The position numbers and the translations under genes are program-made. A stretch of 64,000 nucleotides of DNA from Escherichia coli (GTDB taxonomy: Bacteria; Pseudomonadota; Gammaproteobacteria; Enterobacterales; Enterobacteriaceae). The notes beneath the pieces are model-generated. The model was not told the origin of the DNA. It ran no database searches and saw only the letters and a list, made by a program, of their open reading frames with translations. Location: the NCBI RefSeq assembly GCF_050320075.1, contig NZ_CP190018.1; one strand, written 5' to 3'. Shown piece by piece: positions 26,317 through 29,771 of this stretch (its first letter is position 1; every line of letters starts with the position of its first letter).

Positions 26317-27903
26317 ATGGCACATCCACCACGGCTGAATGACGACAAACCGGTTATCTGGACGGTATCTGTAACGCGCCTGTTCGAGCTGTTTCGCGAT
26401 ATCAGCCTCGAGTTTGATCATCTGGCGAACATTACCCCTATCCAGCTTGGCTTTGAAAAAGCGGTGACCTACATCCGCAAGAAACTGGCCAGCGAACGCT
26501 GCGACGCCATCATCGCTGCTGGCTCTAACGGCGCGTACCTGAAAAGCCGCCTGTCAGTGCCAGTTATTTTGATTAAACCGAGCGGCTACGATGTGTTACA
26601 GGCACTGGCAAAAGCCGGAAAACTCACCTCTTCTATCGGCGTTGTCACTTATCAGGAAACTATTCCGGCGCTGGTGGCGTTTCAAAAAACCTTTAATTTG
26701 CGCCTCGACCAACGTAGCTACATTACCGAAGAAGACGCGCGCGGGCAGATTAACGAGCTGAAAGCTAACGGCACCGAAGCGGTGGTCGGCGCGGGGCTGA
26801 TTACCGATTTGGCAGAAGAAGCCGGAATGACCGGAATTTTTATCTATTCCGCCGCCACCGTGCGCCAGGCATTCAGCGATGCGCTGGATATGACGCGCAT
26901 GTCGTTACGCCATAACACTCACGATGCCACCCGTAACGCCCTGCGTACTCGTTACGTGCTGGGCGATATGCTCGGTCAATCACCACAGATGGAACAGGTG
27001 CGGCAGACTATTTTGCTGTATGCCCGCTCCAGTGCGGCGGTGTTGATTGAGGGGGAAACGGGGACGGGCAAAGAGCTGGCGGCCCAGGCGATTCATCGGG
27101 AATATTTTGCCCGCCACGATGCGCGACAGGGCAAAAAGTCGCATCCGTTTGTTGCCGTCAACTGCGGGGCGATTGCCGAATCGTTGCTGGAAGCAGAGCT
27201 GTTTGGCTATGAGGAAGGGGCGTTCACCGGCTCGCGACGCGGAGGTCGCGCCGGGCTGTTCGAAATCGCCCACGGTGGCACGCTGTTTCTTGACGAGATA
27301 GGCGAAATGCCGCTACCGTTGCAGACCCGGCTGCTGCGGGTGCTGGAAGAAAAAGAGGTCACCCGCGTCGGCGGGCATCAGCCTGTTCCGGTGGATGTGC
27401 GAGTCATTAGCGCCACTCACTGCAATCTGGAAGAAGATATGCGGCAAGGGCAGTTTCGCCGTGATCTGTTTTATCGGCTGAGTATTTTGCGTCTGCAATT
27501 GCCACCACTGCGCGAGCGGGTGGCGGATATTCTGCCGCTGGCGGAAAGCTTTTTGAAAGTGTCTCTGGCGGCGCTCTCCGCCCCGTTTTCTGCCGCATTA
27601 CGCCAGGGGTTACAGGCAAGCGAAACCGTGCTGGTACACTACGACTGGCCGGGCAATATTCGTGAACTGCGCAATATGATGGAGCGACTGGCGCTGTTTT
27701 TAAGTGTGGAACCGACGCCGGATTTAACGCCGCAATTTTTGCAGCTGCTACTGCCGGAACTAGCGCGCGAGTCAGCGAAAATTCCCGCTCCACGCTTACT
27801 GACACCACAACAGGCACTGGAGAAATTTAAAGGCGATAAAACAGCAGCGGCGAATTATTTAGGCATAAGCCGGACGACGTTCTGGCGGCGGCTGAAAAAC
27901 TGA
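26317..27903 (+). CDS. prpR: sigma-54-dependent activator of the prp operon
   Basis: ORF 26305..27903; start placed at [15 protein letters not shown] (528 aa); AAA+ motifs GETGTGKE and GAFTG, C-terminal HTH. Confidence 0.95.
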
Positions 27904-28003
27904 ACTGCCGAATGCAGCGCGAACGCTTTATCCGGCATAAATTTCAATAGATGATGATCACCGATAAACTTACGCATCGGGGATGTTTACATAGGTTTCA
28001 GAA

Positions 28004-28425: not shown

Positions 28426-29097
28426 ATGATGCAGTTAGTTCACTTATTTATGGATGAAATCACTATGGATCCTTTGCATGCCGTTTACCTGACCGTAGGA
28501 CTGTTCGTGATTACTTTTTTTAATCCGGGAGCCAATCTCTTTGTGGTAGTACAAACCAGCCTGGCTTCCGGTCGACGCGCAGGGGTGCTGACCGGGCTGG
28601 GCGTGGCGCTGGGCGATGCATTTTATTCCGGGTTGGGTTTGTTTGGTCTTGCAACGCTAATTACGCAGTGTGAGGAGATTTTTTCGCTTATCAGAATCGT
28701 CGGCGGCGCTTATCTCTTATGGTTTGCGTGGTGCAGCATGCGCCGCCAGTCAACACCGCAAATGAGCACACTACAACAACCGATTAACGCCCCCTGGTAT
28801 GTCTTTTTTCGCCGCGGATTAATTACCGATCTCTCTAACCCGCAAACCGTTTTATTTTTTATCAGTATTTTCTCAGTAACATTAAATGCCGAAACACCAA
28901 CATGGGCACGTTTAATGGCCTGGGCGGGGATTGTGCTCGCATCAATTATCTGGCGAGTCTTTCTTAGTCAGGCGTTTTCTTTGCCCGCAGTGCGTCGTGC
29001 TTATGGGCGTATGCAACGCGTTGCCAGTCGGGTTATTGGTGCAATTATTGGTGTATTCGCGCTACGCCTGATTTACGAAGGGGTGACGCAGCGGTGA
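28426..29097 (+). CDS. yahN: LysE/RhtB-family amino-acid exporter
   Basis: 223-aa polytopic membrane ORF. Confidence 0.85.
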   Translation: MMQLVHLFMDEITMDPLHAVYLTVGLFVITFFNPGANLFVVVQTSLASGRRAGVLTGLGVALGDAFYSGLGLFGLATLITQCEEIFSLIRIVGGAYLLWFAWCSMRRQSTPQMSTLQQPINAPWYVFFRRGLITDLSNPQTVLFFISIFSVTLNAETPTWARLMAWAGIVLASIIWRVFLSQAFSLPAVRRAYGRMQRVASRVIGAIIGVFALRLIYEGVTQR

Positions 29098-29113
29098 GCA
29101 GATAATTTACTCT

Positions 29114-29359
29114 CTACGTAATCAACCTGATTTGCCGAATCCCGACCATCGGCGATGATAGCCCCCGTAATGCGTGGTCCTTATTTCCGATAAGTTTACT
29201 TGAGTCTTTAGCTTCCCATTTCAGCCCACTCTCCCCTGTGTGGGCTTTTTTCATTGCTCTGCCCCGTCCTGAATAGCCAAACAATGGCAATGTTTCACTT
29301 TGCAGGGATGATAATAAGGGGATCTGATTCAGAAGAGTTATGAAAAGTTGGACCGCCAT
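29114..29359 (-). CDS. yahM: small uncharacterised protein
   Basis: ORF 29114..29389; start placed at MAVQLFITLLNQ (81 aa); weak call because an intrinsic-terminator-like hairpin lies inside it on the opposite strand. Confidence 0.5.
   Translation of the reverse strand: MAVQLFITLLNQIPLLSSLQSETLPLFGYSGRGRAMKKAHTGESGLKWEAKDSSKLIGNKDHALRGLSSPMVGIRQIRLIT
29223..29251 (+). terminator. intrinsic-terminator-like hairpin (agcccac...gtgggct + T6), probably the yahN terminator
   Basis: GC stem followed by tttttt on the + strand, 126 bp downstream of the yahN stop. Confidence 0.55.
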
Positions 29360-29771
29360 CGAGGCCTCGAACCCCGTACCATACAACAATCCTGGTTGTC
29401 GTCTGCTCTTCCTGATGAGCTAATGGCGGTTTTTGATATGAGCCTTACAGCATATTTTCTGTCAGGCTTGAGTGCGATGCGTAAGATACAGAAAAGACCC
29501 CACACAAACATGATGGAATTATGATTTTTTTCATATGAATGTCAACCCACACATTCACAAAACATCTGCATGAGATCATTTTTTATACACCGTATAGCTG
29601 CGAAACCACTGCTGATGCTTTTTTAAGCGAAGCGTCGCCGATCACAACAAAATATCGGCGAAAAAGGCGGTGGAATGCCATTTGGCATACGGATATACAG
29701 ATGAAATGATTACCTGCTTTGCGATTCACTCTCTGGTGGAATAACAACTCGCAGGTGGAACCCTTTCTGAA

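Follow-up and report, generated by a model that had tools for sequence, protein, structure and literature searches.

Genomic organization of the yahN-yahM locus

The locus lies within the window, the whole 64,000-nucleotide stretch of Escherichia coli DNA analyzed here, in which the genes are arranged in the order prpR (+), yahO (−), yahN (+), yahM (−), yahL (−), and yahK (−). The window runs in the reverse orientation of K-12 and aligns with it without gaps at this locus, such that a window position equals 374763 minus the K-12 coordinate. Gene annotation was borrowed from strain CFSAN061763, which is 100% identical over the region. Orthologues of yahN are present in Escherichia, Citrobacter, Salmonella, and Edwardsiella. 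The annotated yahM frame occupies the opposite strand, its 3′ boundary lying 16 nt from the yahN stop codon. In the K-12 RefSeq annotation, a further minus-strand gene, xtpA (b4845, 345252-345434), overlaps the start of yahM and comprises 60 codons, ending at window position 29329. The features of the locus are collected in Table 1.

Table 1. Coordinates of features between yahN and the xtpA promoter (window numbering)
Feature	Position	Strand	Basis and remarks
yahN CDS, LysE-family putative amino-acid exporter	28426..29097	+	ORF and annotation; gene predicted to be served by the hairpin
yahN 3′UTR body	29098..29222	+	Conserved non-coding block, 29114-29222
Predicted terminator stem-loop, AGCCCAC-N10-GUGGGCU	29223..29246	+	Fold and conservation
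U-tract, UUUUUUCAUU	29246..29255	+	Sequence; expected yahN mRNA 3′ end ~29250-29254 (K-12 345509-345513, minus strand)
Annotated yahM ORF, 81 codons, ATG start	29114..29359	−	K-12 b0327
Centre of Rho-dependent termination region, xtpA/'yahM' transcript	29178 (K-12 345585, +)	−	Adams et al. 2021
tRNA-like element	29349..29429	−	ARAGORN, cloverleaf fold, conservation
xtpA ORF, window form of 57 codons plus stop, leaderless start	29338..29511	−	ORF list
Sigma-70 promoter, TTGACA-16-CATAAT	29518..29545	−	11/12 consensus match; transcription start 29511
Term-seq 3′ end in T arm of tRNA-like element	29373 (K-12 345390, +)	−	Adams et al. 2021

Architecture of the hairpin downstream of yahN

The + strand hairpin, beginning 126 nt past the yahN stop codon, is composed of seven perfect base pairs, five of them G-C, formed between AGCCCAC (29223-29229) and GTGGGCT (29240-29246), and a 10-nt loop (tctcccctgt, 29230-29239). 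A run of six T residues (29246-29251), the first of which pairs with A29223, closes the structure and is followed by CATT. Sequence and fold both confirm the GC-rich stem with tttttt at 29223..29251 to which an earlier note on this DNA had drawn attention: the + strand hairpin reaches a ΔG of −13.3 kcal/mol against −5.8 ± 1.8 for shuffled sequences (z −4.1), and none of 200 dinucleotide shuffles folds as well. The note's observation that this hairpin is oriented for yahN yet lies inside the 81-codon minus-strand yahM frame also holds, with hairpin and T-run occupying codons 37-46 (KKAHTGESGL) on the opposite strand.

The T-run is present 3′ of the stem on the + strand only. On the minus strand the same segment folds with a ΔG of −12.2 (z −2.9), and the stem is followed by GAAAUGGG. 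A bidirectional terminator was ruled out, the upstream + strand sequence (CCCAUUUC) containing no A-tract and the minus-strand tail (GAAAUGGG) no U-run. The standard terminator scan, with loops limited to 8 nt, omitted the hairpin. A custom scan for a perfect 7-bp stem, a loop of at most 10 nt, and at least 5 T in 8 revealed 10 terminator-like hairpins on both strands of the 64-kb window, compared with 1.3 ± 1.4 in 60 dinucleotide shuffles; chance alone is unlikely to have placed such a hairpin in the 155 nt that follow a given stop codon. No other terminator-like site and no gene separates the hairpin from the end of yahN. Shuffled folds, the window-wide scan, and conservation together rule out a chance hairpin. 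An Rfam search at permissive threshold returned no family for the hairpin and 3′UTR, and a match to 'Betaproteobacteria toxic sRNA' (E 0.68) was set aside as mere terminator likeness.

The hairpin possesses the features of a Rho-independent terminator, namely a stable GC-rich stem, a + strand U-tract, a position downstream of a co-oriented gene, and pairing that is kept among variants. Anatomy and conservation thereby support the earlier note's suggestion that the hairpin would serve as the yahN terminator. No Term-seq 3′ end was recorded on either strand over K-12 345500-345579 in LB at OD 0.4 and 2.0 or in M63 (Adams et al. 2021); because yahN is weakly expressed, the missing Term-seq end is uninformative on termination.

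Conservation of the hairpin and of the yahN 3′UTR

The 49-nt hairpin region is identical in 4,340 of 5,171 complete E. coli records (84%) and at least 95% identical in the others. The stem is unbroken in 19 of 20 E. coli alleles, in the cryptic-clade sequence L004, and in E. albertii. The L004 hairpin is identical at 30/30 positions, and that of E. albertii differs at two bases, both in the loop. A frequent B2 variant, C29227U, preserves a G·U pair on the + strand and creates an A·C mismatch on the minus strand; the U-tract of B2 strains is reduced to U5. Double compensatory stem changes are absent from the sampled alleles, the changes seen being one C-to-U substitution giving G·U and two loop changes. 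In E. albertii, the alignment extends from the yahN stop region through the U-tract and is then lost until the tRNA-like element. As alignable sequence ends just after the U-tract, the hairpin travels with yahN.

The sequence between yahN and the hairpin is itself conserved. The 3′UTR block (29114-29222) is identical at 98 of 107 positions in L004 and 97 of 107 in E. albertii (91-93%), compared with 52-76% at four-fold sites of flanking genes and 72-80% in apparently neutral intergenic spacers; the yahO-yahN promoter region reaches 93% in the same comparison. A search of E. coli seeded with the cryptic-clade sequence returned nothing closer than 91.5% in the complete-genome set. In L004 and E. 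albertii the block bears 1-nt indels, which break the yahM frame. The 3′UTR also contains an internal hairpin, conserved at its base and variable in its loop. Folding of the alignment yields −28.0 with four wobble-compatible one-sided changes on the + strand and −25.9 with more broken pairs on the minus strand, a comparison drawn from a small sample in which each strand's structure was predicted from its own alignment. These one-sided changes preserve G·U pairs on the + strand only.

The minus-strand xtpA transcript

On the minus strand, the promoter −10 element CATAAT ends at 29518, 7 nt before the ATG at 29511, a spacing that makes the A of the xtpA AUG the first transcribed base. The promoter is near-invariant across Escherichia species. 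Muto and co-workers reportedly described xtpA in 2022 as a leaderless mRNA with a tRNA-like sequence. Within this transcript, ARAGORN calls a tRNA-like element whose cloverleaf is the minimum-energy fold both alone and in the 342-nt transcript; the Rfam tRNA model gives no match to the element at E ≤ 1. The element is identical at 81/81 positions across Escherichia species. It is a degenerate relative of the prophage argN tRNA-Arg(UCG) of the ileZ-argN-argO cluster in lambdoid/Stx prophages, and the argN slot of phage phiP27 has the same form with a 4-nt D-arm insertion.

In L004 and E. albertii, codon 4 of the xtpA frame reads TAG, and 3 of 20 E. coli alleles (L002, L033, and L043) have a frameshift in it. 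Such interruptions of the frame, next to an invariant tRNA-like RNA, suggest that the conserved unit is the RNA together with its promoter, more than the XtpA peptide. XtpA has no Pfam or NCBIfam match.

Published data document expression from this strand. RegulonDB v12 credits xtpA to Muto et al. 2022 (J Biochem 171:459), Reg-Seq confirmed a 'yahM' promoter that is IHF-repressed, and the 'yahM' transcript is induced by epithelial-cell contact. The 'yahM 5′UTR+ORF' construct and its cloning primer in Adams et al. 2021 start exactly at ATGTTTGTGTGGGG. In the same study, coverage at the Rho region at K-12 345585 changes from 264 to 45 without bicyclomycin (BCM) and from 480 to 510 with BCM (supplementary file 2), giving a Rho score of 6.2 (p 3e-33). 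A 3′ end at K-12 345390, supported by ~4,300 reads and with an intrinsic-terminator score of 1.28, falls within a Rho region (supplementary files 1 and 3).

With an RNA start at 29511 and a Rho stop inside 'yahM', the minus-strand RNA spans the tRNA-like element, the xtpA stop codon, and the antisense of the hairpin. The Rho region lies beyond the hairpin. Its overlap with the predicted yahN mRNA covers at least 75 nt of perfect complementarity, and ExcludonFinder counts yahM-yahN among its convergent excludons, with overlapping transcription in at least 50% of 58 MG1655 RNA-seq samples. On these published transcript data, antisense RNA overlap at yahN/'yahM' is real.

Coding tests of the yahM frame

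We examined the yahM frame in 20 E. coli alleles and in the yahN loci of other species. Among the 20 alleles, 21 of 246 nt vary in the yahM region, compared with 2 of 98 in the yahN CDS tail and 1 of 81 in the tRNA-like element. SNPs in the yahM frame comprise 3 synonymous and 16 non-synonymous changes, including one nonsense, against a neutral expectation of 24-30% synonymous; the other five frames all show more synonymous changes than yahM. The alleles contain three separate 1-nt frameshift indels in addition to the nonsense change, and all six differences between the window and K-12 alter an amino acid.

Disrupted frames are widespread. PGAP flags yahM as 'frameshifted' in five B2-type genomes, and O157:H7 carries Gln12-to-stop, the exact O157/O55 nonsense haplotype occurring in 310 of 5,170 records. 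The hairpin/T-run region is variant in 831 of 5,171 records; in each of the four examples sequenced, the variation includes loss of one T from the T-run, which puts yahM out of frame. Together, O157/O55 and B2 account for a broken yahM in at least 22% of genomes; among 29 evenly spaced records, at least seven have a broken frame. The frame is intact in ~75% of complete E. coli genomes.

Outside E. coli, no intact yahM frame was found in the other Escherichia examined. Two 1-nt deletions break the frame in L004, the N-terminal half is swapped for unrelated sequence in E. albertii, the frame is absent in Escherichia sp. E1V33 and deleted in L026, and both yahM and yahL are absent in Citrobacter, Salmonella, and Edwardsiella. 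Database 'YahM' proteins come from E. coli and Shigella only, many being truncated or frame-switched mid-protein or at the C-terminus. A HMMER pass over 1.84 billion representative proteins returned 13 matches, all self-like except one marginal, and YahM has no Pfam or NCBIfam match. Its codon score is −0.09, compared with 0.447 ± 0.152 for 81-codon pieces of real window genes, of which 0.6% score lower; nested spurious ATG ORFs score 0.004 ± 0.27, and 40 of those in the window reach 81 aa or more.

The yahM start site is embedded in RNA structure. The AUG (29359-29357) sits in the 3′ strand of the acceptor stem of the tRNA-like cloverleaf, and the sole SD-like motif, GAGG 5 nt upstream, lies within the T arm; both are paired in the cloverleaf fold. 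Apidaecin traps ribosomes at stop codons. In published data from BL21, whose yahM allele is intact and of the K-12 type, yahM shows 0.84 Ribo-seq units for 5.9 TPM of RNA, compared with 923 for 153 for thrA, a footprint-to-RNA ratio ~40-fold lower; the yahM count rises to 18 with apidaecin. This rise may belong to xtpA, the stop codon of which lies within yahM coordinates.

Four of the five hallmarks of a protein-coding gene assessed here are lacking, namely a frame kept intact at orthologous loci, purifying selection, host-like codons, and homologues outside the species, and together the results indicate that the frame is not being preserved for a protein product. We infer that YahM is not produced at any appreciable level; yahM is most likely an open frame that arose by accident in the untranslated xtpA tail rather than a true protein gene. 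The earlier note had offered two alternatives, that yahM overlaps the yahN 3′UTR in antisense or that yahM is not a real gene, and each is supported in part. The overlap stands at the level of RNA, as documented by the xtpA transcript, the Rho region, and the excludon list, and a yahM protein is poorly supported by selection, frame integrity, codon usage, and homologues. Two observations go beyond that note: 'yahM' is the tail end of the xtpA RNA with its tRNA-like element, and the yahN 3′UTR beneath it shows conservation of its own.

A proposed arrangement of two converging transcripts

We propose, with a probability of roughly 70%, that the hairpin is the Rho-independent terminator of yahN and that the xtpA RNA reads across it untranslated and is ended by Rho, leaving 'yahM' as an accidental ORF in its tail. 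RNA polymerase transcribing yahN would continue through the conserved ~155-nt 3′UTR until the 7-bp GC-rich stem forms and the RNA is released in the U-run, so that yahN transcripts are predicted to end at the hairpin at ~29250-29254. On the opposite strand, the strong promoter at 29545-29518 drives the leaderless xtpA mRNA with its tRNA-like cloverleaf. Past its own stop codon, the xtpA RNA continues over the antisense of the yahN terminator and then of the 3′UTR, untranslated on this proposal, until Rho stops it near 29178. The 81-codon 'yahM' frame would simply begin within the acceptor stem and run out close to the yahN stop. The loop, which exceeds the typical length at 10 nt, and the long 3′UTR are counterpoints to assigning the terminator to yahN.

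Three other readings bear on this arrangement. YahM could be a genuine, very young, E. coli-restricted small protein encoded by a second cistron of the xtpA transcript, with a CDS that overlaps the yahN terminator in antisense. The frame that survives in about three quarters of complete genomes, the GAGG at 5-nt spacing, a real transcript with its own IHF-repressed promoter and induction on epithelial-cell contact, and low yet non-zero Ribo-seq counts are consistent with this, and missing purifying selection is still compatible with a young, weakly expressed peptide. We nevertheless consider it rather unlikely, since purifying selection is missing and large lineages have fixed a nonsense or frameshift allele, the amino-acid sequence frame-hops among variants, codon usage is non-genic, the cloverleaf occludes the start site, Rho termination falls within the frame as is typical of RNA that is not translated, and the footprint-to-RNA ratio falls far below that of thrA. 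Alternatively, the conserved yahN 3′UTR with its hairpin might be a functional RNA in addition to terminating transcription, either a 3′UTR-derived small RNA or a cis-antisense partner of the xtpA tail. High conservation of the block despite non-coding indels, strand-asymmetric G·U changes favoring a + strand RNA, a U-rich stretch ahead of the terminator and its U-tract, both seen in Hfq-type small RNAs, the perfect complementarity to the xtpA RNA, and published 'yahM' reads in a small-RNA-enriched pool point this way. Against it stand Term-seq data from three conditions with no 3′ end at the terminator, the lack of an Rfam family, and the fact that mRNA stability or termination context alone could explain the conservation; we judge this reading quite improbable.

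After Rho termination, transcripts are often shortened back to a stable stem. The hairpin could therefore work mainly on the minus strand, as a 3′-end-protecting stem of the Rho-terminated xtpA RNA or as half of a bidirectional terminator, rather than for yahN; it folds on that strand as well and is part of the xtpA transcript, with the Rho region 45 nt downstream. This is weakened by a stem that has no U-run behind it on the minus strand and no A-tract upstream on the + strand, by the B2 variant that breaks the minus-strand pair and keeps the + strand G·U, by the absence of a Term-seq 3′ end at K-12 345530-345579, and by E. albertii, in which the hairpin stays on the yahN side and the xtpA-side spacer is replaced. 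A minus-strand role is accordingly very unlikely in our estimation, and the assignment of the hairpin to yahN is preferred.

Implications for annotation and regulation

Thousands of E. coli genomes, and omics tables as well, list b0327/yahM as a y-gene; its signal is better taken as coming from the 3′ portion of the xtpA/tRNA-like RNA, and a YahM protein should not be assumed from annotation. Induction of 'yahM' in transcriptomes would be a readout of xtpA promoter activity. For yahN, a 3′UTR and a predicted terminator are now defined, and the conserved 3′UTR with its antisense overlap is a candidate for regulation of an amino-acid exporter. GcvB is a small RNA controlling amino-acid transport, and the xtpA locus has been reported as its regulator. 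We think it unlikely that the yahN 3′UTR and the xtpA tail form a selected sense/antisense RNA pair or that the 3′UTR gives rise to a small RNA; if either were true, a LysE-type exporter would be linked to a locus reported to regulate GcvB, and 'yahM' would be a mere annotation shadow of an RNA-RNA module.

Comparison with known systems

The kinds of feature found here are already known, and nothing is at odds with the current understanding of termination. The yahN hairpin shares with canonical E. coli intrinsic terminators a GC-rich perfect stem, U6 directly 3′, a co-oriented CDS upstream, a stability of about −13 kcal/mol in the usual range, and a conserved stem with a variable loop. It differs in its loop of 10 nt (6 if the inner C-G pairs) versus the usual 3-5 and in its distance of 126 nt from the stop codon versus within a few tens of nucleotides; its 3′ end is predicted.

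Small RNAs that depend on Hfq can derive from mRNA 3′UTRs, as in CpxQ, SroC, and DapZ. The yahN 3′UTR resembles these in being a conserved mRNA 3′ end that carries the intrinsic terminator of the mRNA and a U-rich stretch before the hairpin, and differs in that a stable processed RNA, Hfq binding, and targets are all putative. Like spurious or orphan ORFs, yahM is species-restricted and family-less and shows neutral substitutions, frame-hopping, and non-genic codons; unlike these and de novo gene candidates, it lies on a real regulated transcript, where occasional translation is possible.

The convergent excludons of MG1655 listed by ExcludonFinder likewise consist of convergent units with overlapping RNAs, and the locus fits this class at the level of RNA overlap only, as one partner is probably the tail of the xtpA RNA rather than a protein gene and reciprocal regulation is putative. 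The xtpA of Muto et al. 2022 occupies the same locus, with its start on the A of the AUG, the cloverleaf inside the ORF, and 'yahM' in the 3′ part; the difference lies in the frame, which is interrupted in E. albertii, the cryptic clade, and some E. coli, whereas the tRNA-like RNA is invariant.

Conservation of the xtpA RNA and variability of its frame

The minus-strand xtpA leaderless mRNA harbors a tRNA-like cloverleaf, already known in K-12, that ARAGORN assigns to tRNA-Ser (GGA); the Rfam tRNA model gives no match to this element. All 81 of its nucleotides are identical in E. albertii, the cryptic clade and Escherichia sp. E1V33, against only 52-76% identity at neutral sites, and O157 carries one change. 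The xtpA reading frame, in contrast, is not conserved among the loci compared: codon 4 is TAG in the cryptic clade (L004) and E. albertii (L005), and a 1-nt deletion in three E. coli alleles (L002, L033 and L043) yields a 21-aa product. The frame spans 57 codons in the window vs 60 in K-12. Because the frame varies while the xtpA promoter and tRNA-like RNA are invariant, the alignments raise the question of whether selection acts on the RNA and not on the XtpA peptide.

In published Term-seq data, a 3' end supported by ~4,300 reads (K-12 345390, plus strand) lies within the element's T stem, on the 5' strand, rather than at the CCA end, and could arise from processing, pausing or Rho.

Coordinates of features in the window
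Feature	Position	Strand	Remark
REP-like naRNA4 match	27879-27937	-	between prpR and yahO
Weak promoter-like site	29021-29048	+	TTGCCA-16-AATTAT with TG, 9/12; inside yahN 3' end
yahN 3'UTR body	29114-29222	+	
Hairpin internal to yahN 3'UTR	~29132-29155	+	base conserved, loop hypervariable
xtpA reading frame	29329-29511	-	
argN-homologous segment	29345-29433	-	
tRNA-like cloverleaf	29349-29429	-	
Term-seq 3' end	29373	-	

The yahN 3'UTR and regional losses

On the opposite strand, the body of the yahN 3'UTR shows 91-92% conservation among Escherichia species, yet contains 1-nt indels that break frame; it could act as a regulatory 3'UTR or as a small RNA source. The promoter-like site could in principle drive a ~200-nt RNA terminating at the predicted yahN terminator hairpin. 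The naRNA4 match is sub-threshold, at 27 bits where the Rfam gathering score is 59.5. Three B2-type strains (L029, L031 and L032) are without yahL, with yahK directly following the xtpA region, and Escherichia sp. MOD1-EC7003 has lost the yahN 3'UTR and hairpin in a larger deletion. The whole region is missing from ~250 of 5,426 complete E. coli genomes.

Kinship with prophage tRNA genes

The segment enclosing the cloverleaf shares homology with argN, the tRNA-Arg(UCG) gene that lambdoid and Stx prophages carry in their ileZ-argN-argO cluster, with counterparts at 1497-1590 and 1498-1582 in two comparison records (L047 and L048, respectively). The xtpA-yahL region may be a prophage relic. Phage phiP27 possesses the same degenerate form of the element, with a 4-nt D-arm insertion and 85% identity, as an unannotated copy positioned between ileZ and argO.
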